Shown here: positions 1 through 18,287 of the stretch, one piece after another
How positions within the stretch are numbered: the first letter of the stretch is position 1
Layout of the letters: each line of letters begins with the position of its first letter
Assembly: GCA_031459915.1 (NCBI GenBank)
Contig: JAVKHO010000028.1
Coordinates: forward strand, 1 to 19,654
Reading direction: 5' to 3'
Length of the DNA: 19,654 bases
Source of the DNA: Candidatus Tepidifontimicrobium thermophilum
GTDB lineage: Bacteria > Sysuimicrobiota > Sysuimicrobiia > Sysuimicrobiales > Sysuimicrobiaceae
Made by a program: the position numbers and the translations under genes
The notes under the pieces: model-generated
Seen by the model: only the letters and a program-made list of their open reading frames with translations
Told to the model about the DNA's origin: nothing
Databases searched by the model: none

Positions 1-287
1 TGTCCGGTGAGGTGGTAGCGGCGGTTGTGCCACTGGGCAAAGCGTCCGTGGAGGTCGCGCATGAAGGCTGGAAGGGCTGCTGCGGGGGCGCGGAGGAGGA
101 GGTGGACGTGGTTGGGCATCAGCACGTAGGCCAGCACGTCCACGCCGTAGCGCTCGGACAGGCGGCGGAGCAGCTTCAGGTACTCCTCGAAGGCATCAGG
201 GGTGTGGAACAGTCGCTCGCGGCGGTTGCCGCGGCTAGTGACGTGGTAGACGCCCTCGGGCAGCACTCCCCTGAGCCGGCGTGGCAC
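1..287 (-). mobile_element. REP-associated tyrosine transposase (RAYT / IS200-like Y1 HUH transposase), 5' part only, runs off the window edge
   Basis: Translated by hand from GTG at 287-285 (GAGGA RBS just upstream): MPRRLRGVLPEGVYHVTSRGNRRERLFHTPDAFEEYLKLLRRLSERYGVDVLAYVLMPNHVHLLLRAPAAALPAFMRDLHGRFAQWHNRRYHLTG..., open to base 1. It has the YHVxxRGN, LMPNHxHLL (HUH) and NRRY-x-x-x-G motifs of Y1_Tnp/RAYT proteins. It is missing from the ORF track because its stop is outside the window. Confidence 0.9.
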
Positions 288-347
288 GGCTTCCTCACCC
301 ACCGCTTCCGTCGTCCCACTGAATGAACGCAGCTGGCTGGCGTTTTG

Positions 348-407: not shown

Positions 408-1079
408 CTACCGACGGGCCACCCGGAGGCCCACGACTAGGGCCGCAGCGAGGAAGCCGAAGGGAGGCAGGGCTTCCGGCCGGTGGACCCGGAGCTCGCC
501 GTTCCGGGGACGCGACCAGACGCTGGCGGACCACACGATGTCCGCGAGGGGAACGCCCAGGGGGTCGCGGAGCTGGTAGTGCAGGTCCCGCATGACCCAC
601 GGCTGCAGGGTGTGGAGGGTGGCGAGGGCCCGTCCGTCCGGCGCTACTACTACGAGGCGCTGACCCCGCAGAGGCAGCCCGAACCACCGACGGGGAAAGC
701 GCTGGAACATCAAGAGGCCGGCACCGGACGGTCTGAGCGCGCGCACGGGTTTGCGGTCCAGCCAGTCCCACTCCCGCTGGACGGTGAACGCGGGGCTGCC
801 GTCTGCAGCTTCCACGTGGAGGACCAGAGGGGTTAAGAGTCGCAGCTCGGTGTATTTGAGCCACCGCAACCACCGGTGGTCGCACCGCTCCACCGCCCGC
901 CCCGCCAGCTCCCCCTCCGGGGTGCGGATCTCAAACAGAGCGGTGGGGTCCAGAGCCCGATCCCCGCGGTGGATCCGCAGGTGCGGCCGGGTGAGGGGAT
1001 CCAGCGAGGGGGGCACGCCCAGCCACCCGCCCCACGCCCCCGGCCCCGTCAGACCTGCGGTCAGCTCCTCACCGGCCAT
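408..1079 (-). CDS. Scramblase / LURP-one-related (tubby C-terminal-like) protein, about 223 aa
   Basis: C-terminal part of track ORF 408..1553; likely start is ATG at 1079 (MAGEELTAG...). Repeated beta-hairpin pattern FEIRTPEGELAG / LHVEAADGSPAFTVQR / LVVVAPDGRALA / YQLRDPLGVPLA and a terminal hydrophobic helix (FGFLAAALVVGL) fit this fold. Confidence 0.6.
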   Translation of the reverse strand: MAGEELTAGLTGPGAWGGWLGVPPSLDPLTRPHLRIHRGDRALDPTALFEIRTPEGELAGRAVERCDHRWLRWLKYTELRLLTPLVLHVEAADGSPAFTVQREWDWLDRKPVRALRPSGAGLLMFQRFPRRWFGLPLRGQRLVVVAPDGRALATLHTLQPWVMRDLHYQLRDPLGVPLADIVWSASVWSRPRNGELRVHRPEALPPFGFLAAALVVGLRVARR

Positions 1080-1111
1080 CGTCCCCGACCTGGGTTGCTG
1101 TCTTAGGCTGC

Positions 1112-1334: not shown

Positions 1335-2138
1335 ATGGAGGCACCGGTACAGCCCCTGACGTACGGACGGTACCTGCGGGTGCCCGAGCTGCTGTCCCTG
1401 CAGGCCCGCCTGAGCGAGGCCCACGACGAGCTGCAGTTCATCGTGGTCCACCAGGTCTTCGAGCTGTGGTTCAAGCTGGCCCTCTTCGAGCTGGAGGCAG
1501 CGCGGCAGAGCCTGGACCACGACCAGCTGCGTGAGGCGGCACGGCTGCTGCACCGGTCCACGGCGGTGCTTCGGACCGCCACCTCGGCCTTCGACGTTCT
1601 GGAGACTATGCGTCCGTGGGACTTCCTGGAGTTCCGGTCGCGGCTGAAGCCGGCCAGCGGATTCCAGAGCCGCCAGTTCCGAGAGCTGGAGTTTCTCTCA
1701 GGGCTCAAGGACCCGCGCTACCTGCGAAACTTCGAGTCCGACCCCGAAGACTGGACCGCGCTGCAGCGCCGCCTCCATGAGCCCAGCCTGTGGGACGCTT
1801 TCGTGGGGGTGCTCCGGCGGCAGGGGCTGCCGGCTGACGAGGAGCCCCGACTCCTTGAAGCCCTCATCCGGGTGCTCCGGGACTCTGGGTCAGAACTGAA
1901 CCGGCTGTGCGAGGTCCTCGTGGAGTACGACGAGACGCTGGCCCTGTGGCGGTACCGTCACCTGCTGATGGTGGAGCGGGTGATCGGGGCCCGCCCCGGC
2001 ACGGGAGCGGAGGACGTGCACAGAGCCTTCCAGGACTCCCGGGATTACTTCACGGGCGTGGGCTACCTGCGGGACACGCTGTCCAAGCGGTGCTTCCCCC
2101 TGCTGTGGGAGGCCCGGACCTTCGTGGAGCGGGAATGA
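1335..2138 (+). CDS. kynA: Tryptophan 2,3-dioxygenase, about 267 aa
   Basis: ATG 1335 after GGTGAGGG. TDO motifs LTYGRYL, HDELQFIVVHQVFELWFK, FLEFRSRLKPASGFQSRQFRELEF, WRYRHLLMVERVIG (proximal haem His) and FPLLWEART. Confidence 0.95.
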   Translation: MEAPVQPLTYGRYLRVPELLSLQARLSEAHDELQFIVVHQVFELWFKLALFELEAARQSLDHDQLREAARLLHRSTAVLRTATSAFDVLETMRPWDFLEFRSRLKPASGFQSRQFRELEFLSGLKDPRYLRNFESDPEDWTALQRRLHEPSLWDAFVGVLRRQGLPADEEPRLLEALIRVLRDSGSELNRLCEVLVEYDETLALWRYRHLLMVERVIGARPGTGAEDVHRAFQDSRDYFTGVGYLRDTLSKRCFPLLWEARTFVERE

Positions 2139-3289
2139 TGGAAGACGTCCTTTTGCGGTGGAGACGGGAGTTTCCGATCCTTGAGCGCACCACGTACCTC
2201 GTCTCCCACTCCATGGGAGCGATGCCGCACTCCGCGCGCGTGTGGGTCCAGCGCTACCTGGACGCGTGGGAGACAGAGGGCGTGACCGCGTGGGAGACGT
2301 GGGAGGCGTACCTCCGGGACCACGCGGACCGGATCGCGCAGCTCATCGGGGCTCCACCGGGCAGCGTGGTGATGCACCAGAACGTCACCACCCTGTTCGG
2401 CGCCCTGCTGTCGGCCCTGGTCCGGCCGGGGCGAAGGCGCAAGGTCGTCGCCACGGACCTGAACTTCCCGTCCCTCCTGTACACGGTCCGCGCCCACGAG
2501 TCTTTGGGGCTGCAGCTGGAGCTGATCCACAGCCCCGACGGCGCCACGATCCCCGTGGACGCCTGGGCGCAGGCGGTGGACACCCGGACTCTGGCCGTCC
2601 TGGTGGACCACGGGATTTTCCGGTCGGGTTTCTTGCAGGACGTAGTAGCCATCGGGGAGCTGGCCCGTCGACGCGGGGCGTGGGTGGTGGTGGACGCGTA
2701 CCAGACGGCCGGCTGCGTCCCCTTTGACGTCCGGGACTGGCCCGTGGACGTGGTTTTGGGAGGGTCGCACAAGTGGCTGTGCGGGGGCCCGGGGGCCGCC
2801 TGGATGTACGTGGCCCCGGAGCAGGCAGACCGGCTGGAACCCGCGCTGGCAGGCTGGTTCGGGCACCGCGAGCCGTTCGCCTTCGACCTGGAGCTGAGCT
2901 ACGCAGCCGGGGCGATGCGGTTTGCCACCGGCACCCCGGGGATGGCGGCCCTGTTCGCGGCTCGAGCCGGACTGGAGGTCGTCCTGGAAGTGGGCGTACG
3001 GGCGATCCGGGAGTGGTCTCAAGCCCTCGGCCAGCAGATGGTGGACCGCGCGGACTCCCTCGGGCTGGAAGTCCGGAGCCCCCGAAACCCGGAACTCAGG
3101 ACGGGCATGGTGGTGGTGGACTTCCCGGGTGCGGAGGAGACTGCACGGGACCTGGTGGCCCGGAAGATTCTGGTGGACTACCGCCCGGGAGCCGGCATCC
3201 GTATGTCCGCGCACTTCTACACTCACCCGCAAGAGGTGCAGGCGGCCTTCGAGGTCATCGGCGACCTGGCGCGACGCGTTCGCCGGTAG
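2135..3289 (+). CDS. kynU: Kynureninase-like PLP enzyme (aminotransferase class V fold), about 384 aa
   Basis: ATGA overlap with the kynA stop. RREFPIL..TYLVSHSMG, VVVDAYQ, GGSHKWLCGGPG (PLP Lys), LEPALAGWFGH..PFAF, RFATGTP, VDYRPGAGIRMSAHFY. The fold is certain; the kynU assignment rests on these motifs plus coupling to TDO. Confidence 0.8.
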   Translation: MMEDVLLRWRREFPILERTTYLVSHSMGAMPHSARVWVQRYLDAWETEGVTAWETWEAYLRDHADRIAQLIGAPPGSVVMHQNVTTLFGALLSALVRPGRRRKVVATDLNFPSLLYTVRAHESLGLQLELIHSPDGATIPVDAWAQAVDTRTLAVLVDHGIFRSGFLQDVVAIGELARRRGAWVVVDAYQTAGCVPFDVRDWPVDVVLGGSHKWLCGGPGAAWMYVAPEQADRLEPALAGWFGHREPFAFDLELSYAAGAMRFATGTPGMAALFAARAGLEVVLEVGVRAIREWSQALGQQMVDRADSLGLEVRSPRNPELRTGMVVVDFPGAEETARDLVARKILVDYRPGAGIRMSAHFYTHPQEVQAAFEVIGDLARRVRR

Positions 3290-3343
3290 CCGGAGGGGGA
3301 ACGGACGTCACGATCCTCAGGGGTGGGTCCGCACGGTAGATAG

Positions 3344-3373
3344 TTGACAAGTCAAAATTTGACCCGTTAGAGT
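3344..3373 (+). promoter_or_regulatory. Sigma70-type promoter of the abm operon overlapped by palindromic operator(s)
   Basis: Consensus TTGACA (3344-3349), 18 nt, TAGAGT (3368-3373) in a strongly AT-rich patch. Inverted repeats TTGAC-AA-GTCAA (3344-3355) and GTCAAA-A-TTTGAC (3351-3363). RBS GGAGG at 3400-3404. Confidence 0.75.
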
Positions 3374-3414
3374 TGAGCCAAGTCCACGAGACGGTCGACG
3401 GAGGTCGCGGGGCC

Positions 3415-5811
3415 ATGCGGGTGGTGTGTGTCGGTGGTGGTCCCGGGGGGTTGTACGCGGCCATCCTCCTGCGGAAGCTGGACCCCCGCTGTCGGGTGGT
3501 GGTCTACGAACGCAACCGGCCCGACGACACCTTCGGGTGGGGCGTGGTCCTCTCGGACAGCACCCTCGGCAGCCTGCAGGTCGCGGACCGCGAGAGCTAC
3601 GACGAGATCCAGCGGGCCTTCTACCACTGGGACGACATCGAGATTCACTTCCGGGGGCGGGTGATCCGGTCCGGCGGACACGGCTTCGCCGGGATCGCCC
3701 GGACGACCCTGCTGCGCATCCTGCAGGACCGCGCCCGGTCCCTGGGCGCGGAGCTGGTGTTCCAGCACGAGGTGGAGGACGTGGAGGAGCTCGCCCGGGA
3801 CGCGGACCTGGTGGTGGCGGCGGACGGCGTGAACAGCCGGACCCGCAGCCGCTACGGGGACGCCTTCGGGGCGGAGGTGGAGTGGGGCCGGTGCCGCTAC
3901 GTGTGGCTGGGAACCCACCGCCCCTTCGACGCCTTCACCTTCGCGTTCCAGGAGACCCCGTGGGGATGGTTCACCGTGCACGCGTACCCCTTCGACGGCG
4001 GGACCAGCACCTTCATCGTGGAGACCCCCGAGGAGGTGTGGCGCGCCGCGGGCCTGGACCGTATGGACAAGGACGAGTCCATCGCCTTCTGCGAGGCGCT
4101 GTTCGGCTGGCTCCTGCAGGGGCACCGGCTGATGTCCAACGCCGCGCACCTGCGGGGTTCGGCCCACTGGCTGCGTTTTCCCTGGCTGCAGTGCCGTCGG
4201 TGGGTCCACGCCCTGGAGGTGGACGGCCGGCGCGTCCCCCTGGTCCTGTTGGGAGACGCCGCACACACCGTTCACTTCTCCGTGGGTTCTGGCACGCGGC
4301 TGGCCATGGAGGACGCCATCGGGCTCGCCAAGGCCCTGGCCCAGCACGGCTGGCAGGACCGGGACTCCCTGCAGGCGGCGGTGGAGCGGTACGAGGCGGA
4401 GCGCCAGACGGAGCTGCTGCGCCTGCGCAACGCCGGCCGGAATTCCGCGGAGTGGTTCGAGAACGTCCGCCGCTACGTGCACCTCGAGCCGGAGCAGTTC
4501 GCGTACACCCTCCTGACCCGGTCCCAACGGCTGTTCCACGAGGAGCTGCGGCGGAGGGACCCGCAGTACGTGGCGTCCTTCGAGCGGTGGTTCGCCGGCC
4601 GGTGCGGCCTCGGGGAGCGGCCCGTCCCTCCCATGTTCACGCCCTTCCAGCTCCGGGGGGTCCGGCTGAAGAACCGGGTGGTGGTCTCGCCCATGGCGAT
4701 GTACTCCGCGGAGGACGGCACCGTAGGCGACTTCCACCTGGTCCACCTGGGTGCTCGGGCGCTCGGCGGCGCGGCGCTGGTGTTCACCGAGATGACGTGC
4801 GTGTCCCGCGAGGGGCGTATCAGCCCGGGCTGCGCGGGGCTGTACAAGCCGGAGCACGTGGAGGCCTGGCGGCGGATCGTGCAGTTCGTGCACCAGCACA
4901 CCGACGCCAGGATCGGGATCCAGCTGGGCCACTCGGGGCCCAAGGGCTCCACCCGGGTGGGCTGGGAGGGCTACCACGAGCCCCTTCCAGAGGGGAACTG
5001 GCCCGTGATGGGACCCTCCCCGATCCCCTGGGGGCCGGGGAACCAAATTCCGCGCGAGATGACCCGGGAGGACATGGACCGCGTGGTGGCGGAGTTCGTC
5101 CGGGCGACCCGGTGGGCCGCGGAGTGCGGGTTCGACTGGCTGGAGGTCCACTGCGCTCACGGGTACCTGCTGTCCGCCTTCATCAGCCCCCTTACGAACC
5201 GCAGGACCGACGCGTACGGGGGGAGCCTGGAGAACCGCATGCGGTTTCCCCTGGAGGTGGTGCGCGCGGTGCGGGACGTCTGGCCGGACCACCTGCCGCT
5301 GTCGGTCCGCATCTCCGCCCACGACTGGGCGCCCGGCGGCGTCACACCGGACGACGCGGTGCAGATCGCGCGGATGTTCAAAGAGGTGGGGGTGGATCTC
5401 ATCGACGTGTCCAGCGGCCAGACCACCCGGGACGCCCGGCCCGCCTACGGCCGCCTGTACCAGACGCCGTTTGCGGACCGCATCCGCCACGAGGTGGGGA
5501 TCGCCACCATGGCGGTGGGATCCATCTACGAGGCAGACCATGTGAACTCCATCATCGCCGCCGGTCGGGCTGACCTGTGCGCCATCGCGCGTCCCCACCT
5601 GGCGAACCCCCACTGGACCTTGGTGGAGGCGGCGCGGATCGGCTACCCGGACGTGCCTTGGCCCAAGCAGTACCTGGACGGCAAGGACCAGCTGGAGCGC
5701 TTGATGGCCCGCGCCCGGGCGGCCGAGGAGGGCGGACGGGCGGCTCTGGAGGAGCTGGAGAGGGTGCTGGCCCGCGCGGCGCAGGACCGGGCGCGGGTGA
5801 CGGTGGGCTAG
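3415..5811 (+). CDS. abmA: 2-aminobenzoyl-CoA (anthraniloyl-CoA) monooxygenase/reductase (bifunctional salicylyl-CoA 5-hydroxylase/oxidoreductase family), about 798 aa
   Basis: ATG 3415 after GGAGG. N-terminal FAD monooxygenase ([50 protein letters not shown]) fused to an Old Yellow Enzyme-type flavin reductase ([39 protein letters not shown]). Confidence 0.93.
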
Positions 5812-5823
5812 CCGGAGGTCCCG

Positions 5824-6345
5824 GTGCCGTCGAGGAAGCATGGGGCGGTGGAGCTTCTGGGGCTGGAAGCCCGCGCTACGGAGGAGGACCACAAGTCCAT
5901 CCGGCTGTGGCTGCGGCTCCTGTCGGCCACCAATCTGGTGAAGAACGAGGTGCAGTCGCGGTTGAGGCGCACCTTCGGGACCACCCTGGCCCGGTTCGAC
6001 CTGCTGGCGCAGCTGGAACGGCACCCGGAAGGGCTGGCCATGGGGCCGCTTTCGAAGCGCATGATGGTGACCGCGGGCAACGTGACGCGGCTGGTGGACC
6101 AGCTGGAGGCCGAGGGTCTGGTGACCCGTGTCCCGGACCCGCGGGACCGCCGGACGGTCCGGGTGCGCCTGACCGCGGAGGGGCGGCGGCGGTTCGCCGC
6201 GATGGCCGCGGTCCACGAGGGCTGGATCGTAGAACTGTTCCGGGGACTGTCCCGGGAGGACCGCGAGCAACTGTACGGGCTGCTGGCGGCACTCAAGCAG
6301 AGCGTGGCGCGGGCGCTGGCACGGGAGGGAGGTCGGGCGGGATGA
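5824..6345 (+). CDS. MarR-family transcriptional regulator, 173 aa
   Basis: GTG after GGAGG (5814-5818). [42 protein letters not shown]...VRLTAEGRR winged-helix signature. Confidence 0.93.
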
Positions 6346-7202
6346 CGGAGTGGACGCGGTTCATGAGACCTGTCTGGATGCCGGGGGACACAGGGGGTCT
6401 AGAGGGGTTCCGGCCCGAGCACGTGGACTGGTCGGTAGACGACGGGGTGGGGACTGTGACCCTACGCCGGCCCCACCGGAAGAACGCCCTGACCTTCGAC
6501 AGCTACGGTGAGCTACGGGACCTGTTCACGCGCCTAGCCGCTGCCCCGGAGGTCCGCGTGGTGGTGCTGACCGGAGCGGGCGGGGAGTTCTCTTCGGGCG
6601 GGGACGTGTTCGACATCATCGGCCGGCTGGTGGAGACGGACATGCCGGGGCTAGTGCGCTTCACCCGCATGACCACGGAGGTGGTCCGGCAGATGCGCCG
6701 GTGCCCGCAACCCCTCATCGCGGCGGTGGACGGGGTGTGCGCGGGCGCGGGCGCGGCCCTGGCCCTGGCCTGCGACCTGCGGGTCGGGACCCCGCGCAGC
6801 CGGGTGGGTTTCCTGTTCACCCGCGTGGGCCTGGCGGGCTGCGACATGGGAGCCTGCGCCCTACTGCCGCGGGTAGTGGGAGCCGGCCGGGCCGCGGAGC
6901 TCCTGTACACCGGCCGCATGCTGGAGGCGGAGGAGGCGGAGCGCTGGGGGTTCTTCAACCGCGTGGTGCCGTCGGAGGAACTGATGCCCGCGGCGTGGGA
7001 GCTGGCGCGGGAGCTGGCTACTGGCCCTTCGTTCGCGCTGGCCATGACCAAGCGGATGCTGATGCAGGAGTGGAGCCTAGGCGTGGACGAGGCGCTGGAG
7101 GCGGAGGCGCAGGCGCAGGCCATCTGCATGGCCACCCGGGACTTCGACCGGGCGTACCGGGCTTTCGCCTCCCGGGCGAAACCTGAGTTCCAGGGGGACT
7201 GA
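6342..7202 (+). CDS. Enoyl-CoA hydratase/isomerase (crotonase) family protein, about 286 aa
   Basis: ATGA overlap with the marR stop, [68 protein letters not shown]. Confidence 0.92.
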
Positions 7203-7208
7203 CCGCGG

Positions 7209-8429
7209 ATGCGGGGTCCGGACTTCCTGGACTGGCCCTTCTTCGAGCCGCACCACCGCGTGCTGTGCGCGGACCTGGAGGGCTGGGCCCGGGAGGCGTT
7301 GCGGTGGAGCGAGCCGGAGGACGTGGACGCGGCCTGCCGGCGCCTCGTGACGGACCTCGGCCGGGCGGGCTGGCTGCGTTACGCGGTATGCGGCCGGGAG
7401 TTCGGGGCGGCGCAGGACGCCCTGGACGTCCGCAGCCTGTGTCTGATCCGGGACACCCTCGCGTACCACCACGGCCTTGCGGACTTCGCTTTCGCCCTTC
7501 AGGGACTGGGCTCCGGGCCCCTGAGCCTGTTCGGCAGCGAAGCGCAGCGCCGACGGTACCTACCCAGGGTGGCGGCCGGGGAGTGGGTGGCGGCGTTCGC
7601 GCTCACGGAACCGGAGGCCGGCTCCGACGCGGCCGCCCTGCGGTGCGAGGCAAAGCCTGCGGACGGCGGCTACCTGCTCAACGGCACCAAGACCTTCGTG
7701 TCCAACGGGGGGATCGCGGACTTCTACGTGGTGTTCGCGCGGACCGGCGAGGCACCGGGCGCGCGCGGGATCACCGCCTTCGTGGTGGACTCAGGTAGCG
7801 CGGGAGTTGAGGTAGCCGAGCGCATCCAGACTTCCGCGCCTCACCCCCTTGCGAGGCTGCGCTTTTCCGACTGCTGGATCCCCTCCACACAGCGGGTGGG
7901 AGGCCCGGGCGAGGGGTTCCGGATCGCCATGCGGACCCTGGACGTGTTCCGGACCACGGTGGCCGCCGCGGCCGTGGGTTTTGCCCGCCGCGCCCTGGAG
8001 GAAGCCCTGGACCGGGCGGTGGCCCGGCGGCTGTTCGGCGGGACCCTGGCCGACCTGCAGCTCACCCAGGCCCGGCTGGCGGACATGGCAGCGCGGGTGG
8101 ATGCCTCCGCCCTGCTCACGTACCGGGCTAGTTGGCTGCACGACCGCGGGGCCCGAGCGGTGAGGGAAGCTGCTATGGCCAAGATGGTGGCCACCGAGAA
8201 CGCCCAGCAGGTGGTGGACGCGGCGGTCCAGCTGTGGGGAGGGCTGGGGGTCACCCGGGGCACCGTGGTGGAGTCCCTGTACCGGTACGTGCGGGCCCTG
8301 CGCATCTACGAGGGCGCTACGGAGGTCCAGCAGCTGGTGGTGGCGAGGGAGCTGCTGCGTGGCCGGCACACCGCGGAGGAGGGGGGAGAGCATGGCACAG
8401 ACGGCTCTGGTGGACCGGTTCGTCCTTGA
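7209..8429 (+). CDS. Acyl-CoA dehydrogenase family protein, 406 aa
   Basis: [58 protein letters not shown] (catalytic Glu position). Confidence 0.95.
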
Positions 8430-10020
8430 CCGCTTGCCGCCTCCCGAGCTGCTGCCGGAGTTCCTGTTCGAGCTGCCGGAGCTGCAGTACCCGGAGCGCC
8501 TGAACTGCGCCGGCCCGCTGCTGGACCGGTGGGTCGCCACCGGCGGTGGGGAGCGGGTGGCTCTGCGGGCGCCCGGACTGACCTGGACGTACCGGGACCT
8601 GTGGGTGCACGCGAACCGCGTCGCCCGGGTGCTGACCGAGGATTTCGCGCTGCAGCCCGGAAACCGCGTGCTCCTGAGGGCCCCCAACCACCCCATGCTG
8701 GCTGCGTGCTGGTTCGGGGTGGTGAAGGCCGGTGGCGTGGTGGTCACCACCATGCCTTTGCTCCGGCAGAAGGAACTGACCGACATCCTCACCAAGGCGG
8801 AGGTCAGCCACGTGGTGTGCGACGTCCGGCTGCGGGAGGAGCTGGACGCCGCGGTGGCGCGGTGCCCCTGGGTCCGCGAGGTGGTGTACTTCGGGGACGA
8901 CGCTCCGGGCAGTCTCGAGGCCCGCATGGCGCGTAAAACCCAGGACTTCCAGAACGTGGACACCGCCTGCGACGACCCGGTTCTCATCGCCTTCACCTCG
9001 GGGACCACGGGCAAGCCCAAAGGGTGCGTGCACTTCCACCGGGACGTGCTGGCCATCTGCGACACCTTCGCCCGGCACGTGGTCCGGGCCACGCCGGACG
9101 ACGTGTTCATCGGAAGCCCGCCCCTGGCCTTCACCTACGGGCTGGGAGGGCTCCTGGTGTTCCCCCTGCGGATCGGGGCCAGCAGCGTGCTGCTGGAGCG
9201 GGCGGGGCCGGACGAGCTGCTGGAGGGGATCGAGCGGTACGGCGCCACGGTGTGCTTCACCGCTCCCACCGCGTACCGGGCCATGGCCCCCAAGACGGGC
9301 GGACGCAGGCCTGGACAGCTCCGGAAGTGCGTGTCCGCGGGTGAAGTCCTGCCGGCGTCCACGCGGCTGCAGTGGCGCGAGGCCACGGGGATCGAGATCC
9401 TCGACGGCATCGGGTCCACGGAGATGCTGCACATCTTCATCTCCCACACGGAGGAGGAGGCGAAGCCCGGGGCCACGGGGAAGCCCGTGCCCGGCTACCG
9501 GGCCTGCGTGCTGGACGACGAGGGCCGCCCGCTGCCTGCGGGCACGGTGGGCCGGCTGGCGGTGAGGGGCCCTACGGGGTGCCGCTACCTGGACGACCCG
9601 CGGCAGCGGGACTACGTGCAGGGCGGGTGGAACGTGACGGGCGACGCGTATCTGGTGGACGAGGACGGCTACTTCGTGTACCAGGCCCGGACCGACGACC
9701 TCATCATCTCCGCCGGGTACAACATCGCGCCCGCGGAGGTGGAGGAGGCCCTGCTGACCCACCCCGCGGTCGCGGAGTGCGGGGTGGTGGGCGTCCCGGA
9801 CCCGGAGCGGGGCCAGGTGGTGCGGGCCTACGTGGTCCTGCGTCCGGGGTTCGCGCGAGGTCCGGAGATGGTGCGCGAGCTGCAGGAGCACGTGAAGGCC
9901 CGACTTGCCCCGTACAAGTACCCGCGGCAGGTGGAGTTCTGCGGGGAGCTGCCCAGGACGGAGACAGGCAAACTCCAGCGCTTCCGGCTCCGGGAGTGGG
10001 CCCGCGGGGGAGTCCAGTAG
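8392..10020 (+). CDS. abmG: 2-aminobenzoate (anthranilate)-CoA ligase, benzoate-CoA ligase family, about 542 aa
   Basis: ATG 8392 after GGAGGGGGGAG. N-terminus [17 protein letters not shown]...[12 protein letters not shown]-loop [62 protein letters not shown]. Context with abmA supports the substrate call. Confidence 0.85.
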
Positions 10021-10048
10021 AGGGCTTCGGTGGAAGCGGAGGGACCCG

Positions 10049-10516
10049 ATGGAGATCCTGCAGCCCGTGCGGTGGAAGCGGCCCCGGGGCTACAGCCACG
10101 GCGTGGTGGCCCGGGGAACGTGGGTGTTCGTGGCCGGGATGGTGGGCTGGGACAACGCCTGTGAGGAGTTCGACAGCCTGGACTTCGTGGACCAGGCCCG
10201 CCGGGCGCTGGAGAACATCGTGGCGGTCCTGGAGGAGGCAGGGGCTCGACCCGAGCACCTGGTCCGGCTCACCTGGTACGTCACGGACCGGGACGAGTAC
10301 CTGAGCTCCCTGGAGCGGCTCGGCCAGGTGTACCGGGAGGTGATCGGCCGTCACTACCCCGCCATGTCCGTGGTGGAGGTGAAGGGGCTCGTGGAGCCCG
10401 GGGCCAAGGTGGAGATCGAGGCCACCGCGGTGATCCCGGACGGCGAGGGCGAACCCGGGCGGCCAGCGGTTTTTGGCGAAAACAGAAACACCCACGGAAG
10501 GGGGGAAGACACGTGA
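10049..10516 (+). CDS. Rid (YjgF/YER057c/UK114) family protein, about 155 aa
   Basis: ATG 10049 after GGAGGGA. PRGYSHGV, VFVAGMVGWD, QARRALENI..VLEEAG, YPAMSVVEVKGLVEPGAKVEIEATAV. Confidence 0.92.
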   Translation: MEILQPVRWKRPRGYSHGVVARGTWVFVAGMVGWDNACEEFDSLDFVDQARRALENIVAVLEEAGARPEHLVRLTWYVTDRDEYLSSLERLGQVYREVIGRHYPAMSVVEVKGLVEPGAKVEIEATAVIPDGEGEPGRPAVFGENRNTHGRGEDT

Positions 10517-11694
10517 GGAGCAGGTGGGTAGTCGGCGTGGTGGTGGTGCTGGCCAGCTCGCTCCTGGTGTCCGGGATGGCGGGTGGCCAGGCCCGGACGC
10601 TCCGGGTCGGGTTCGTCAGCACCCTGTCGGGAGGTGGTGCGGCACTGGGGCAGGACGTTCTGGACGCCTTCCAGCTGGCCGTCCGTCACCTGGGCGGGCG
10701 GCTGGGCGGCCTGCCCGTGGAGGTGCTGACCGCGGACGACCAGCTGAACCCGGACGTGGCCCGTGCCGCGGTGGAGCGGTTCCTGCGCAGGGACCGGGTG
10801 GACCTGGTGACGGGCATCATCTTCTCCAACGTGCTCCTGGCGGTGGGAGACCTGGTGTTCAGTAGCGGGGTCTTCTACATCAGCCCCAACGCCGGCCCGT
10901 CCGAGTACGCGGGGGAGCAGTGCAACCTGCACTTCCTCAACGTGGCGTGGCAGAACGACAACATGCACGAGGCCATGGGGCACTACGCGACCCTGAAGAA
11001 CTACGAGACCGCCTTCATCCTGGCCCCCAACTACCCCGCGGGCCGGGACGCCCTGGCCGGGTTCAAGCGGTTCTACAAGGGGCGCGTGGTCAGCGAGGTC
11101 TACACGAGGCTCGGACAGCTGGACTACTCCGCGGAGATCGCGCAGATCCGGGCCGCCCGGCCCCGGGCCGTCTACGCCTTCTACCCGGGAGCCATGGGGG
11201 TGAACTTCATCAAGCAGTACGCGGAGGCGGGCCTCATGCAGCAGGTGCAGCTACTGGTGCCGGGCTTCTCCGCGGACGCGGACGTGATCCGCGCGGTGGG
11301 CAAGCCCATGGTGGGGGTATTCAACAGCTCCCACTGGGCGCTGGAGCTGTTTAACCCCATCAACCGCCGGTTCGTGGAGGACTTCCGGCGCAGCTACGGG
11401 CGGATCCCGACCCTGTACGCGGCGCAGGGGTACGACACCGCCCTGGCCATCGACCACGGGCTGCGGGCGGTGGCCGGGGACCTGGGCCGGAAGGCGGAGT
11501 TCCGCAAGGCCATCCTGTCGGGGTTCGACAGCACCCGGGGCCGGGTGCGGTTCAGCAAGAACGGCTACCCGATCCAGGACTACTACCTGAGGCAGGTGGT
11601 GGAGCTGCCGAACGGGGAGATTGTGAACCGGCTGCGGGGGACCATCTTCCGCAACCACGGGGATGCCTACGTGGAGAAGTGCCGGCTCCCCTGA
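10513..11694 (+). CDS. ABC transporter substrate-binding protein (Liv/HAAT class, aromatic-acid type), 393 aa
   Basis: GTGA overlap. Sec-type signal peptide (MRSRWVVGVVVVLASSLLVSGMAGGQA); VGFVSTLSG, IIFSNVLLAV, YISPNAGPS, AWQND, PNYPAGRD, YAAQGYD. Confidence 0.9.
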   Translation: MRSRWVVGVVVVLASSLLVSGMAGGQARTLRVGFVSTLSGGGAALGQDVLDAFQLAVRHLGGRLGGLPVEVLTADDQLNPDVARAAVERFLRRDRVDLVTGIIFSNVLLAVGDLVFSSGVFYISPNAGPSEYAGEQCNLHFLNVAWQNDNMHEAMGHYATLKNYETAFILAPNYPAGRDALAGFKRFYKGRVVSEVYTRLGQLDYSAEIAQIRAARPRAVYAFYPGAMGVNFIKQYAEAGLMQQVQLLVPGFSADADVIRAVGKPMVGVFNSSHWALELFNPINRRFVEDFRRSYGRIPTLYAAQGYDTALAIDHGLRAVAGDLGRKAEFRKAILSGFDSTRGRVRFSKNGYPIQDYYLRQVVELPNGEIVNRLRGTIFRNHGDAYVEKCRLP

Positions 11695-11719
11695 AGCGGG
11701 CTCCTGAGCGGAGGGTCCC

Positions 11720-12640
11720 GTGCCCGTCTCCCTGGTGCTGGAGCAGCTGCTGAACGGCCTGCAGTTCGGGCTGATGCTGTTCCTCCTGTCCGCGGGGCTG
11801 ACCCTGGTCCTCGGGATGATGGACGTGGTCAACCTGGCGCAGGGGTCCCTTTACATGCTGGGCGCGTACTTCGCTGCCACGCTGGCTGCTGCCACCGGCT
11901 CCTTCTGGGCCGGGCTGGCGGGTGCGGTGCTGGCCACCGCCCTGGTGGCGCTGCTGCTGGAGGCCTCCGTCCTGCGGCGGGTGTACGGGGCTGACCACCT
12001 GACCCAGGTGCTGGCCACCTTCGCCCTGATCCTGGTGTTCAACGAGGCGGTGCGCGCCCTCTGGGGCCCGCAGGCGCTGCTGCTGTCCGTGCCTCCCGAG
12101 CTGGCGCGTCCGGTGACGCTGCTGCCCGGACTCAGCTACTCCGCATACCGGCTGACCGTCATCGGGGCGGGTGCGCTTTTTGCGGTGGGGATGTTCCTGT
12201 TCATCCACCGGACCCGGGTGGGGATGTGGGTGCGGGCGGGCGCGTCCAACCGGCGCATGGCGCAGGCCATGGGGGTGCCCATCCGCAGGGTTTTTACGGG
12301 CGTGTTCGTGACGGGCGCGGCTCTCAGCGCGGTGGCCGGCGCGCTCCTGGGCCCCATCTTCGCCGTCCAGGTGGGCATGGGGGAGGATGTGCTGATCCTG
12401 GCCTTCGTGGCCATCGTGATCGGCGGCATCGGCTCGGTGAAGGGGTCCCTGGTGGGTTCGTTGCTGGTGGGCGTGGTGGACACCGCGGGCCGCGCGTTTC
12501 TCCCCTCAGCGTTCGGCCTTCTGTTCGCCCCTGAAGTGGCCTCCAACCTCGGGCCCACGGTGGCGTCGGTGCTCATCTACCTGCTGATGGCGGTGGTCCT
12601 GTTCGTGCGTCCCAGGGGCCTGTTTCCCGTGCACGGGTAG
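11720..12640 (+). CDS. ABC transporter permease, LivH-like, 306 aa
   Basis: QLLNGLQFG.MLFLLSAGLTLVLGMMDVVNLAQGSLYM, TRVGMWVRAGASN, AFVAIVIGGIGS, RPRGLF; multiple TM segments. Confidence 0.92.
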   Translation: MPVSLVLEQLLNGLQFGLMLFLLSAGLTLVLGMMDVVNLAQGSLYMLGAYFAATLAAATGSFWAGLAGAVLATALVALLLEASVLRRVYGADHLTQVLATFALILVFNEAVRALWGPQALLLSVPPELARPVTLLPGLSYSAYRLTVIGAGALFAVGMFLFIHRTRVGMWVRAGASNRRMAQAMGVPIRRVFTGVFVTGAALSAVAGALLGPIFAVQVGMGEDVLILAFVAIVIGGIGSVKGSLVGSLLVGVVDTAGRAFLPSAFGLLFAPEVASNLGPTVASVLIYLLMAVVLFVRPRGLFPVHG

Positions 12641-12643
12641 CCG

Positions 12644-13620
12644 ATGCGGGCCCGGGACCTTTCCGTGGAGCAGGCCCGGCGCGCCGGCGTGGCGCTGCCC
12701 CGGGCCTTCGTCCTCTGGGGGGCAGGCTCGGTGGCCGGGCTGGTCCTCCTGGCGTTTCCTGCTCTGGCTCAAGCGCTGGAGTGGTCCTACTACCTCAGCC
12801 TGGCCACCAAGGCCCTGATCCTGGTCCTGGCCGCCAGCGCCCTGAACCTCGTTTTGGGCTACGGCGGGCTGGTGAGCTTCGGGCACGCCACCTACTACGG
12901 GCTGGGTGCGTACACCGTGGCGGTCCTGGCCCGGGAAGGGGTCCGTCAGGCGTGGCTGGTGTGGCCCGCGGCGGTGGCCGTGGCGGCCCTGGCGGCTCTG
13001 GCCATCGGGGCGGTGTGCCTGCGCACCCGGGGCCTGTACTTCATCATGATCACCCTGGCGTTCGCGCAGATGGTGTACTACTTCGTGGTCTCCTTCAAGC
13101 AGTACGGGGGCCAGGACGGGCTGCGGGCGCCGCGCACCGACTTCGGCCTCCCCCTGGGGGACGCGGAGGTGTACTACCTGAGCCTCCTCCTGGTGGCCGC
13201 GAGCCTGTTCTTCCTCTGGCGGCTGGTGCACGCCCGCTTCGGCCGGGCCCTGCAGGCAGCCCGGGACAACGAGGTGCGGGCCACCACGGTGGGCTTCCCC
13301 GTGTACCGGATCCAGCTGGTGGCGTTCGTGATCTCGGGAGCCCTCACCGGGCTTGCGGGCGCCCTGATGGCGCACCACACCCAGTACGTCTCGCCCGCCA
13401 TGTTGAGCTGGCCGCAGTCGGGCCACTTCATGTTCATGGTCATCCTGGGCGGGGTGGGGCGGTTCTGGGCCGGGCTGCTGGGAGCGGGAGCCATGGTCCT
13501 GATCGAGGAACTGTTCCACTCCCTCACCGTGTCCTGGCAGCTGTACGTGGGCCTGACGCTGCTGGCGGTGGTCCTGCTGGCCCCGAGGGGGCTCGCGGGG
13601 CTGGTGGAGGGACGGCGGCG

Positions 13621-13624
<4 letters not shown>
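12644..13624 (+). CDS. ABC transporter permease, LivM-like, 326 aa
   Basis: LNLVLGYGGLVSFGHA, RTRGLYFIMITLAFAQM, GGQDGL, FGRALQAARDNE, MVILGG, APRGLAG. The start could be slightly downstream. Confidence 0.92.
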
Positions 13625-15122
<1,498 letters not shown>

Positions 15123-15126
<4 letters not shown>

Positions 15127-15908
15127 GCAGCACGGACCTGGTCGGGCGCGTGGCGGTGGTCACAGGGGGAGGCCGTGGGGTGGGCCGCGCGTGCGCGTTA
15201 GAGCTGGCACAGCGGGGAGCCTCGGTGGCGGTGCTGAGCCGTACGGCGGAACAGGTCCGCCGGGTGGCGGAGGAGGTGCAGGCCATCGGGAGCCCTGGCC
15301 TGGCTGTCGCCTGCGACGTGACCCACCGCGGACAGGTGGAGGAAGCCCTGAGGCAGGTGCGCAGCCAGCTGGGGCCGGTGACGGTCCTGGTGGCTGCGGC
15401 CGGCGTGGCCCGCGGCAGTCCGTTTCTCGAGACCTCCGACGAGGACTGGGAGGAGCACCTTCGGACCAACGTCACGGGCGCCTTCTACGCCATCCGGGCG
15501 GCCCTGCCGGACATGCTGGCGGCAGGTTGGGGACGGGTGGTGGCCGTGGCCAGCGTCGCGTCGAAGGCGGGTTCCCGCTACACCGCGGCGTACACCGCGT
15601 CCAAGCATGCGCTGCTGGGTCTGGTGCGTTGCGTGGCGGTGGAGTTCGCCGACCGCGGGATCACCGCCAACGCGGTGTGCCCGGGCTACCTGGACACGGA
15701 CATGACGGAGGCCAACGTGCACCGCATCGCTGCGCGCACGGGCAGACCGCCGGAGGAAGTGCGGCGGGCGCTGGAACGCACGAGCCCTCAGGGCCGCCTG
15801 TTCACGCCCGAGGAGGTGGCCTCCCTGGTGGGGTACCTGTGCTCGGAGGCCGCTGCGGGCGTCAACGGTCAGGGGATCGTGCTGGACGGCGGTGCCGTGC
15901 AGTCGTGA
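15123..15908 (+). CDS. Short-chain dehydrogenase/reductase (3-hydroxyacyl-CoA dehydrogenase-like), about 261 aa
   Basis: GTGA overlap with the ATPase stop. VVTGGGRGVG, CDVT, VASVAS, YTASK, NAVCPGYLDTDM, NGQGIVLDGG. Confidence 0.93.
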
Positions 15909-15920
15909 GGGGGTGGGCTG

Positions 15921-17531
15921 ATGGTGACCTATGAGGACGTGCCGCAGCGGTTCAACGTGGCCCGCTACTTCCTCCACCGCCACCTGGAGGAGGGCCGTGC
16001 GGACCGCCCGGCCCTGTACAGCGGAGACCGGGCGGTCACCTACCGGGAGCTGGCGGAGCTTTCGAACCGCACCGCCCATGTGCTGCGGGAGCTGGGGGTG
16101 GAGCCCGAGGACCGGGTGCTGCTCGCGCTTTCGGACGGCGTGGAGTTCGTGGCCGCTTGGTACGCGGTGGTGGGGATGGGTGCGGTCTCCGCAGAAGTGT
16201 ACACGTACCTCCACGCTCACGACTACGCCTACTACCTGGACTACGCCCGGCCCCGGGTGGTGCTGACGGACGCCACCACGCACGGGCGCGTGCGGGAGGC
16301 GGCGCGGGAGGTGGGCTTCCGCGGGAAGCTAGTGGCGGTGGGCGTCTCGGAGCTGGAGCCTGGAGAGGTGGACTTCCACCACGCGGTCTGTGGGGCGCCC
16401 GTAGAGCCGATCCTGGCGGACACCCCCAAGGACCAGTTCGCCCTGTGGAAGTTCACCACCGGCACCACGGGCCGGCCCAAGGCCGTGGTGCACTGCCACT
16501 ACGCCCCTTACCTGAGCTTCTGGAACTACGCCCAGGAGGTCATCCGGTACACTCCGGAGGACGTGGTGCTGCCGGTGCCCAAGCTGTTCTTCGGATACGC
16601 GCGGGACTGCACGGCCCTGTTCCCGTTCGGGGTGGGTGCCGCGGGCGTGGTGTTCCCGGAGCGCTCCACCCCCGAGCGGATCTTCGAGCTGGTGGCGCGG
16701 TACCGGCCCACGGTGCTGGTGCAGGTCCCCACCATGATGCGGGCCATGGTCGAGCACCCCGAAGCGCACCGTTACGACCTCTCGTGCGTTCGCCTTGCCA
16801 CCTCTGCGGGGGAGGCGCTACCCGCGGAGCTGTACGCCCGGTGGAAGCAGAAGTTCGGCGTGGAGGTGGTGGACGGCATCGGCTCGTCGGAGCTGTACCA
16901 CATCTACATCTCAAACCGGCCCGGAGAAGTCCGCCCCGGGAGCGTGGGCCGCCCGTGCCCGGGCTACCGGGCGGAGGTCCGGGACCCCGAGGGCCACCCC
17001 CTGCCCGCGGGAGAGGTCGGGGAGCTGTGGGTGTGGGGAGAGACCGCGGCGGTGATGTACTGGCTGGACCGCGGGAAGTCTGTGCGGACCTTCCACGGGA
17101 ACTGGGTGCGCACGGGCGACCTGTTCCGACAGGACGCGGACGGCTTCCTGTGGTACCAGGGCCGCGCGGACGACCTCATGAAGGTAGGCGGCGTGTGGGT
17201 GGCTCCCCTCGAAGTGGAGGAGTGCCTACTCCGGCACCCCCTGGTGCGGGAGTGCGCGGTGGTCCCGGAACTCCGCGGGGGCCTGACCGTACCGGTGGCG
17301 TACGTGGCGCCTCGGGACCCCGCGGAGGCAGGGCCTGAACTCGCCCGGCAGCTCCAGCAGTACGTGCGGGAACACCTCAGCCCCCACAAGTACCCCCGGG
17401 AGGTGCGGTTCGTGGAGGCGTTGCCGCGCACGCCCTCAGGCAAGGTGGACCGCAGGAAGCTGCGGGAGACGGCGGAGCCTTCAGGGGCTGCGGCCGAACC
17501 GGCCGGGCCGGTCTCGGCCTCGCCCTTCTAG
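15921..17531 (+). CDS. Second benzoate-CoA ligase family (aryl-CoA ligase) protein, 536 aa
   Basis: FNVARYFL, WKFTTGTTGRPKAVVH, PKLFFGY, SAGEALP, DGIGSSELYHIYISN, TGDLF, GRADDLMKVGG.WV.P.EVE, HKYPR, PRTPSGK. Confidence 0.9.
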   Translation: MVTYEDVPQRFNVARYFLHRHLEEGRADRPALYSGDRAVTYRELAELSNRTAHVLRELGVEPEDRVLLALSDGVEFVAAWYAVVGMGAVSAEVYTYLHAHDYAYYLDYARPRVVLTDATTHGRVREAAREVGFRGKLVAVGVSELEPGEVDFHHAVCGAPVEPILADTPKDQFALWKFTTGTTGRPKAVVHCHYAPYLSFWNYAQEVIRYTPEDVVLPVPKLFFGYARDCTALFPFGVGAAGVVFPERSTPERIFELVARYRPTVLVQVPTMMRAMVEHPEAHRYDLSCVRLATSAGEALPAELYARWKQKFGVEVVDGIGSSELYHIYISNRPGEVRPGSVGRPCPGYRAEVRDPEGHPLPAGEVGELWVWGETAAVMYWLDRGKSVRTFHGNWVRTGDLFRQDADGFLWYQGRADDLMKVGGVWVAPLEVEECLLRHPLVRECAVVPELRGGLTVPVAYVAPRDPAEAGPELARQLQQYVREHLSPHKYPREVRFVEALPRTPSGKVDRRKLRETAEPSGAAAEPAGPVSASPF

Positions 17532-18287
17532 CACCGCGCGGATCGTGTCCACGAGTAGGTCCGTGAGGGTCTCGAAGGTGCCACGCCCCTCCTCCTGGGT
17601 GGCCGCGGCCGGCGATCCGCAGTAGGCCTGCTCCATCCCCATGGCCTGGAAGTCCCGGAGCCCCGACCTCAGGGCCCCAGGCAGGTCCACAGGCACGTCC
17701 GGAAGAGCCCGCATGGCCTGCACGTCCACCAGCTCGGGACGTTCCGCCAGGACCAGGGAGGTCTCGTAGCGGCCGGCGTGGCAGGAACCGCTGCGGAACT
17801 CTTCCCCCAGCAGCTCCGCCCGCGCCCGACGGGTGAGGTCCAGGTAGCCCACCACCACGCCGGTGCTGGCCTCCACGGCGTCCAGGGCCGCGTGCAGCGC
17901 CTGGACGTGTTCTGGTTCGAAGTGGTTGTTGACCACCACGATCCAGCGGAACCCCTGGCGGACGAGGGAGGTGCACACGTCCGTCACGAGGGCCTGCAGG
18001 CTCTGTGGGGCGATGCCCACCGTGCCGGGAAACCCGGAAGCGCACCGGGTGACACCGTACGCGACAGGAGGCAGGACCAACACCCGGACCTGGGGGTCGT
18101 CCCGGAGCCGTTCTGCGGCCCGCCGGCACATGCCCAGGGAGATGAAAAGGTCGGTGCCCAGGGGGGCGTGCGGCCCGTGGGCCTCCACCGCGCCCACGGG
18201 CAGCAGGAGGACCGGCCTGCGGTGGTGAGAGAGCAGCTCCCGCGCCGCCGGCCAGGACAGGTCTGCGAAGCCGTGGTCCGTCGCCAC
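17481..18287 (-). CDS. Creatininase-family metal-dependent amidohydrolase, 268 aa
   Basis: GTG 18287 after GGGGAA. LSWP, LLLPVGAVEAHGPHAPLGTD, YG...FPGT, VNNHFEPEH, CHAGRYETS: the binuclear metal ligand pattern of the creatininase/ArfB/MftE family. Confidence 0.9.
   Translation of the reverse strand: MATDHGFADLSWPAARELLSHHRRPVLLLPVGAVEAHGPHAPLGTDLFISLGMCRRAAERLRDDPQVRVLVLPPVAYGVTRCASGFPGTVGIAPQSLQALVTDVCTSLVRQGFRWIVVVNNHFEPEHVQALHAALDAVEASTGVVVGYLDLTRRARAELLGEEFRSGSCHAGRYETSLVLAERPELVDVQAMRALPDVPVDLPGALRSGLRDFQAMGMEQAYCGSPAAATQEEGRGTFETLTDLLVDTIRAVLEGRGRDRPGRFGRSP

Follow-up and report, generated by a model that had tools for sequence, protein, structure and literature searches.

Two families of kynurenine formamidase, the cyclase-fold KynB and the alpha/beta-hydrolase KFase, are described in the available text of PMC4243253, and an aerobic route from anthranilate (2-aminobenzoate), the abm pathway, is known from Azoarcus evansii (PMC8388817, accessible part). 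Another deformylating system is BrbF of Sinorhizobium meliloti, a creatininase-annotated protein that, in the accessible sections of PMC9478397, removes the formyl group of a formamidopyrimidine in riboflavin synthesis, as archaeal ArfB also does. Here, we analyzed a 19,654-nucleotide stretch of DNA (the window) from Candidatus Tepidifontimicrobium thermophilum, a bacterium of the hot-spring type; the window is an entire contig (C21) of a 2.6-Mb genome that is 96% complete, with a G+C content of ~70% throughout. It combines genes for a tryptophan 2,3-dioxygenase (TDO; kynA) and a kynureninase (kynU) with an abm-type operon and a gene of the creatininase family. From sequence and structure comparisons, we consider it probable that this creatininase-fold protein is the deformylase of the pathway, at one position or another, and represents a third formamidase family.

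The operon has the hallmark of abm loci, with an AbmA-type flavoenzyme, a coenzyme A (CoA) ligase, a crotonase, an acyl-CoA dehydrogenase and a Rid protein encoded together. The A. evansii clusters share these functions with the window, the ligase there being an anthranilate-CoA ligase (abmG), and likewise encode a binding protein, whereas the window adds kynA, kynU, a second type of ligase, a short-chain dehydrogenase/reductase (SDR) and the creatininase-fold hydrolase. All the genes named in an earlier sequence-only reading of this DNA were confirmed at their positions by domain and profile scans. The model that recovers AbmA, PRK08255, is named for salicylyl-CoA 5-hydroxylase; because kynA and kynU are linked here, we infer that the substrate is anthraniloyl-CoA rather than salicylyl-CoA. 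Both upstream enzymes are divergent. KynA, present in a single copy in the genome, scores 170 bits on the Pfam TDO model (cut-off, 34.9) and 219 bits on TIGR03036 (cut-off, 391). KynU stays below the TIGR01814 equivalog cut-off (124 versus 246 bits); it has the pyridoxal phosphate lysine motif, a KYNU_C domain and an adjoining TDO gene, and its top PDB match is the Pseudomonas fluorescens kynureninase 1qz9 (E 3e-40). The plus-strand genes mostly touch or overlap. The creatininase gene lies on the minus strand, converges on the gene for the second aryl-CoA ligase (ligase 2), overlapping its 3' end by 51 bases, a point that the sequence-only reading had not mentioned. In the window it thus forms a transcription unit of its own, apart from the operon, and the description of the locus as self-contained has to be qualified accordingly. 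The grouping of the genes is not a matter of chance, since Sysuimicrobiota, Actinomycetota and Gemmatimonadota all have loci that combine them.

Neither a cyclase nor an alpha/beta hydrolase is found among the window genes, as had been claimed, and the absence of a recognizable kynB extended to a profile search of the whole genome. Two cyclase-family genes with KynB-like metal motifs reached 53.7 and 37.2 bits on TIGR03035 (KynB; cut-off, 223). A twin-arginine translocation (TAT) export signal is present in one of them, and the other precedes a CoA-transferase gene. The TAT-signal cyclase (L001:1324-2211, minus strand) keeps an intact H-x-G-T-H-x-D-A-P-x-H motif. For the alpha/beta-hydrolase formamidase, tblastn against the genome with Streptomyces-type (kynU-linked) and indoleamine 2,3-dioxygenase-linked enzymes as queries gave no match at E 1e-4, and a profile search of the genome gave nothing at E 1e-8. 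The formamidase gap is thus real at the level of the known families. Some Pseudonocardiaceae have an Abhydrolase_6 gene close to kynA, which was considered as the missing enzyme and rejected; it occurs in 2 of the 80 creatininase loci described below and has no match in the window's genome. Loci of kynU or kynA that lack kynB are not rare, since many of 40 kynU and 60 kynA actinobacterial loci have neither a known formamidase nor a creatininase nearby. Many canonical kynureninase genes of actinobacteria also stand without kynA within 7 kb (L090-L094 and L113-L118).

The candidate scores 189.6 bits on PF02633, the model of the creatininase/MftE/formamide hydrolase superfamily (cut-off, 31.3), and is below the equivalog cut-offs of both creatininase (TIGR04448, 102.6 versus 235 bits) and MftE (TIGR03964, 103.6 versus 172 bits). 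A structure model built on a 37-sequence alignment (predicted local distance difference test, 94) has the creatininase fold, and Pseudomonas putida creatininase (1j2t) is the best match both in the PDB and by fold (template modeling score, 0.73), at ~26% identity. The site residues E35, H37, D46, H122, E124, H170 and E175 align with creatininase E34, H36, D45, H120, E122, H178 and E183, the metal ligands and catalytic residues of that enzyme, and are at least 95% conserved among 80 relatives. The creatinine-binding W154 and W174 of creatininase are both replaced. Upstream of the gene, no conservation was found beyond the closest relatives. At four loci (L186-L189, in genomes G377, G346, G425 and G407), open but degenerate creatininase genes stand head to head with kynA, with 25 to 45 residues deleted and site residues lost.

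The chemistry proposed for the candidate has a precedent in BrbF, a proven formamide hydrolase, which is likewise annotated as a creatininase and deformylates an aryl-type formamide, the reaction shared with ArfB (PMC9478397, accessible part). The two differ from the candidate in serving riboflavin synthesis with a nucleotide substrate. Like KynB (PF04199, TIGR03035), the candidate likely uses a two-metal site to hydrolyze a formamide of the kynurenine route, but it belongs to a different fold and family, may act one step later, and is carried by genomes that mostly lack KynB-like genes. ArfB presumably belongs to the creatininase family. The alpha/beta-hydrolase KFase, known from eukaryotes and represented by the neighbor of kynA-kynU in Streptomyces (presumably SCO3644; identified by position and Pfam), occupies the same place in other actinobacterial kynA-kynU loci; it has a serine hydrolase fold and shared no locus with the creatininase in the loci examined.

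To put the locus into a broader context, we examined the 80 best of 507 confirmed creatininase relatives in a species-genome collection, scanning up to 10 kb on contigs that were often short. Ligase 2 was present in 69 of these loci, kynA in 49, kynU in 42 and abmA in 41, while cyclases and alpha/beta formamidases were found in none (0/80 each). Among 41 kin genomes, a creatininase orthologue (at least 63%) was detected in 11 of the 12 family members and in one other genome, and TDO and AbmA were found in 12/12 family members and few others. In G026, where the orthologue is missing, a cyclase lies two genes away from kynA; at this locus (L131:9686-12302), kynA precedes a class I/II aminotransferase and the cyclase, and no kynU match was found over 20 kb, which may point to a kynurenic-acid route. 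In the relatives L008, L010 and G006, the creatininase is the last gene of another ATP-binding cassette (ABC) importer operon. Eight genomes (G023, G099, G104, G691, G731, G826, G886 and G911), flagged as unpublished, contribute to the tallies only and bear on none of the conclusions.

Even samples of two groups gave a similar picture. In Pseudonocardiaceae (141 genomes), the creatininase was found in 36 and TDO in 112; all 36 carriers had TDO, in 35 cases within 4.9 kb of the creatininase. Among 60 Pseudonocardiaceae TDO loci picked across the score range, 12 had an alpha/beta formamidase-type gene, and the creatininase was in none of those 12. In Gemmatimonadota (201 genomes), 61 had a creatininase relative, 60 of them in a separate clade with 39 to 47% identity. 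The 27 loci of this clade that were fetched all have an adjacent ligase, 26 have abmA, 22 kynA and 23 a kynU of the type with histidine described below, typically in the order creatininase-sdr-rid-crotonase-acad-abmA-kynA-kynU, and none of the 27 contains a known formamidase match. In a class-wide sample of Actinomycetes, by contrast, the creatininase appeared in 1 of 221 genomes (the center genome only) against 167 with a kynureninase-like match, so the gene is patchy and one solution among several. A sister clade of G035 (41 to 45%) was left uncounted as orthologous, as its 13 loci, mostly short and metagenomic, show no kyn or abm genes. His-type KynU was absent among the 30 best loci of a Chloroflexota sample, and plasmids gave no creatininase or KynU match at the thresholds used. 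Across three phyla, the creatininase and ligase 2 are therefore strongly linked to kyn and abm genes; the combination of a kynB elsewhere in the genome with no such linkage, which the sequence-only reading had named as speaking against it, was looked for, and neither part of it was found.

Carriers of the creatininase mostly lack KynB-like genes. On TIGR03035, 45 of the 48 distinct genomes that carry it stay at or below 87 bits, and in the three exceptions (192 to 237 bits) kyn genes are absent from the creatininase locus. No carrier was found to have an orthologue of the Streptomyces-type hydrolase (best, 147 bits, versus 529 to 554 in two controls; scoring in large genomes covered 48 candidates). 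With a threshold of 150 bits or more, a KynB-like gene was found in 0/15 Gemmatimonadota carriers (best, 68 bits) and in 11/14 noncarriers (152 to 195 bits), the remaining noncarriers being one with a split match and two without any. The Fisher value of this contrast (~1e-5) overstates it, because no Gemmatimonadota KynB-like gene attains the curated TIGR03035 cut-off, the noncarriers were selected for having the KynU that matched the window's best, most of the genomes are metagenome-assembled, and kin are not independent.

The position of the deformylation step was addressed through KynU and the neighbors of the creatininase. In the window KynU, His24 replaces the Asn of the G-N-S-L-G motif, and this histidine was found in 59/59 KynU from creatininase/ligase loci, 0/26 from alpha/beta-hydrolase loci and 7/51 others. 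His-type KynU form two distant clades (~28% identical); both the KynU and the creatininase trees were quick trees without bootstrap (L022 was dropped from the latter), and the KynU tree is silent on one versus two origins. The most constant neighbor of the creatininase is the ligase, ahead of kynA. Moreover, the four weakest Pseudonocardiaceae creatininases, with site residues lost and deletions, stand beside kynA (two also beside kynU) in genomes without a ligase 2 orthologue, and five loci retain kynA and His-type kynU in genomes from which the creatininase is absent. The constancy of the ligase, the decay of the creatininase where ligase 2 is missing, and the histidine in KynU point to deformylation after kynureninase. 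We give an even chance to the creatininase acting there, on free N-formylanthranilate.

Kynureninases able to cleave N-formylkynurenine directly are known. The route would start with N-formylkynurenine formed by the divergent TDO, an activity predicted from its family. KynU, judging by its histidine and the gene distribution, would cut this compound directly into alanine and N-formylanthranilate, which the creatininase-fold enzyme, with a two-metal site formed by E35/H37/D46/H122/E175 together with E124/H170, would hydrolyze to anthranilate and formate. Ligase 1, ligase 2 or both could then produce anthraniloyl-CoA. AbmA would hydroxylate and reduce it, and the crotonase, Rid, SDR and acyl-CoA dehydrogenase would lead to beta-oxidation as in A. 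evansii.

The two ligases of the window are 38.5% identical. Ligase 1 has the anthranilate-CoA ligase AuaEII (4wv3) as its top PDB match and shares with it a Thr at the G position of the F-G-Y motif. Ligase 2 has the pocket F-G-Y-A-R-D, conserved in 67/67 full-length orthologue matches; it shares F-G-Y with PqsA (5oe3), which fits anthranilate, and has the unusual R-D where PqsA has M-G. In PqsA these are F209-G210-Y211 and M213-G214 (PMC7593710, available text). A single-sequence structure model of ligase 2 (pLDDT, 46) was not used. In five actinobacterial carriers, no ligase of type 1 was found and the best aryl-CoA ligase match, where there was any, was ligase 2, while G307 has kynA, kynU, abmA and ligase 2 and lacks the creatininase. 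These observations suggest that ligase 2 is probably the anthranilate ligase proper to this cluster type and redundant in the window, and not the enzyme of an additional branch, as had been proposed. The window AbmA is 85 to 97% identical within the genus, but identity falls to ~50% with the AbmA found elsewhere in the family; the latter is of the type that follows a luciferase-like gene, an arrangement also seen in actinobacteria. From these comparisons, the window cluster looks like a merger. A luciferase-like gene precedes AbmA in 35 of the 80 loci, and in actinobacteria and other genera of the family (L036:7099-9986, L144 and L126) the reductase half of AbmA is shortened or diverged.

A side branch emerged from the same loci. 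In 17 of the 80 (L014, L016, L030, L050, L051, L063 and 11 more), the order is creatininase-hydantoinase B-ligase 2-hydantoinase A, with no kyn genes, and a weak acetone-carboxylase gamma domain is fused to the end of hydantoinase B. There, the creatininase-ligase pair appears to work on anthranilate from a second source, the substrate of the module being possibly an aminoacetophenone or a bicyclic lactam. We tentatively propose a widespread, reordered route in Sysuimicrobiota, Actinomycetota and Gemmatimonadota, somewhat short of an even chance as a whole, in which a His-type formylkynureninase acts directly, kynurenine is never made, and a creatininase-fold N-formylanthranilate deformylase passes anthranilate on to a dedicated PqsA-like ligase, the latter pair also serving the second source via the hydantoinase/acetone-carboxylase-like enzyme.

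Several observations weigh against the creatininase as a deformylase acting late. The loci with hydantoinase genes suggest that the family may serve other substrates, and G307 that the enzyme is dispensable somewhere. Histidine as a predictor of KynB absence, set beforehand, failed in 3/4 creatininase-free Gemmatimonadota, which combine a KynB-like gene with a His-type, window-like KynU, and histidine occurs in 115/115 scorable sequences of the 120 closest KynU homologues, whatever their gene context. In G078, a genome with a KynB-like gene (218 bits), the creatininase is not linked to the ligase 2-kynU-kynA locus. The two cyclases and two further creatininase paralogues of the window's genome could moonlight as formamidases, and kin being non-independent, the counts represent about three lineages. 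Finally, in three genomes of the same family, the creatininase lies ~6 kb from kynA-kynU and abmA is on another contig (as is ligase 2 in the one examined for it), an arrangement that an early step fits equally well. The textbook order, with the creatininase as a non-orthologous N-formylkynurenine formamidase and third type of KynB, draws on this last arrangement and on the creatininase of G009, directly divergent from kynA; the exclusion of KynB-like genes at the genome level is equally compatible with it, and the acetone-carboxylase gamma domain would suit N-formyl-aminophenyl ketone substrates. KynU also keeps the W/G/T residues aligned with those of P. fluorescens KynU. We nonetheless regard this order as rather unlikely, given the creatininases that decay next to kynA, the persistence of kynA and His-type KynU at five loci without a creatininase, and G069, one of the genomes with the hydantoinase module, which has a kynB-kynU pair and, separately, a creatininase-ligase module.

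The sequence-only reading had placed N-formylanthranilate in the route either free or as its CoA ester. Several observations favor the free acid, as set out above; for the ester, which ligase 2 would form and the creatininase would then deformylate, we found no support and hold it very improbable. R228-D229 of ligase 2 is indeed invariant in the 67 matches, where benzoate ligases have L-G, both ligases are retained in the window, in three other genomes of the genus and in G009, and the decay of the creatininase tracks the loss of the ligase; against this, the partner ligase of Gemmatimonadota has T-G or M-G at the R-D positions, the F-G-Y of ligase 2 matches that of an anthranilate ligase (PqsA; PMC7593710, in the text available), and G307 keeps ligase 2 and abmA without the creatininase. 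Activated N-acylanthranilates, moreover, tend to cyclize to benzoxazinones. The creatininase could also have another job, for which it would open a lactam or an amide from some other source of anthranilate or act after AbmA, with deformylation left to spontaneous hydrolysis, a cyclase or another paralogue. The loci with the hydantoinase-like pair, the many kynA-kynU loci with no formamidase nearby, the KynB-like metal motifs of the two genome cyclases and the separate minus-strand unit in the window would all agree with it. It is nevertheless quite improbable, as the exclusion of KynB-like genes in Gemmatimonadota is hard to explain in this way, one cyclase bears an export signal, and both are far below the KynB cut-off; a step after AbmA is contradicted by the kynU-kynA-creatininase-ligase loci of G064 and G067, genomes without an AbmA match. 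That the protein is a true creatininase next to the cluster by chance, as database names and its best PDB and fold match would have it, is extremely improbable in view of its score, its identity, the replaced tryptophans and a linkage conserved over three phyla.

The preferred assignment, deformylation of N-formylanthranilate by the creatininase-fold enzyme, would have consequences beyond this genome. We found no literature that connects the breakdown of tryptophan or anthranilate with a protein of the creatininase family, in a search that did not extend to subscription papers or supplements, and the accessible parts of PMC7730936, PMC13094657 and PMC7461572 contain no such link. The candidate likely adds a third formamidase family and fold to a known pathway. 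If so, it would fill a hole in many soil and sediment bacteria that possess a TDO, a kynureninase and the anthraniloyl-CoA route while lacking a formamidase, and would give a function to a large family labeled "creatininase" (61/201 Gemmatimonadota and 36/141 Pseudonocardiaceae sampled). If the late order is also correct, the route of these bacteria would not pass through the bioactive metabolite kynurenine, and kynurenine producers predicted from kynA and kynU would need to be reassessed. Cultured carriers of the creatininase gene exist, with nonpathogenic ones in Streptoalloteichus, Actinokineospora and Prauserella.

TABLE 1 Features of the kyn-abm cluster in the window
Feature	Position	Strand	Evidence
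kynA, divergent TDO	1335..2138	+	PF03301 E 1e-49
kynU, divergent kynureninase	2135..3289	+	PF00266 + PF22580 (KYNU_C); start overlaps kynA stop
Weak sigma-70-like promoter match upstream of abmA	3344..3373	+	10/12 match; 1 found versus 0.5 expected by chance
abmA, predicted bifunctional anthraniloyl-CoA monooxygenase/reductase-type flavoenzyme	3415..5811	+	PRK08255 1293 bits (cut-off, 1078); FAD_binding_3 + Oxidored_FMN
MarR regulator	5824..6345	+	PF12802
Crotonase-family hydratase/hydrolase	6342..7202	+	PRK08258 438 bits, above cut-off
Acyl-CoA dehydrogenase	7209..8429	+	Four Acyl-CoA_dh domains
Ligase 1, likely AbmG-type anthranilate-CoA ligase	8392..10020	+	TIGR02262 391 bits; pocket F-T-Y-G-L-G-G
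Rid-family imine deaminase	10049..10516	+	PF01042
LivKHMGF-type ABC importer, whole	10513..15126	+	Pfam domains
Importer binding protein	10513..11694	+	
Importer permeases	11720..12640 and 12644..13624	+	
Importer fused double ATPase	13621..15126	+	
SDR	15123..15908	+	PF00106, PF13561
Ligase 2, aryl-CoA ligase	15921..17531	+	TIGR02262 477 bits; pocket F-G-Y-A-R-D; constant creatininase partner
Creatininase-fold metal amidohydrolase, candidate deformylase	17481..18287	-	PF02633 E 8e-56

Assembled contigs from one RNA run cover all bins of the window, and their origin from DNA is possible; raw reads of one RNA run followed the predicted strands, with a depth of just 0.26 in the creatininase bin. 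At the end of the contig (18500-19581, plus strand), genes for an HTH_3 repressor and then an IrrE/ImmA-like metallopeptidase (PF06114) make up a control pair of the kind usual in prophages and integrative elements. This pair lies immediately upstream of the creatininase gene, whose original upstream operon it may have displaced. At the opposite edge (3-302, minus strand) is the beginning of an IS200-like Y1 transposase domain (PF01797), and a 230-amino-acid frame without a Pfam match lies upstream of kynA (408-1100, minus strand). Elsewhere in the genome, a second aromatic-CoA region (G000:C2, ~37000-94000; L141-L143) contains four further aryl/acyl-CoA ligases, together with a crotonase and an acyl-CoA dehydrogenase that are 66% and 57% identical to those of the window. 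In relatives (L010), a comparable block is found beside the creatininase, with genes that resemble benzoyl-CoA reductase subunits by their sequence ends.

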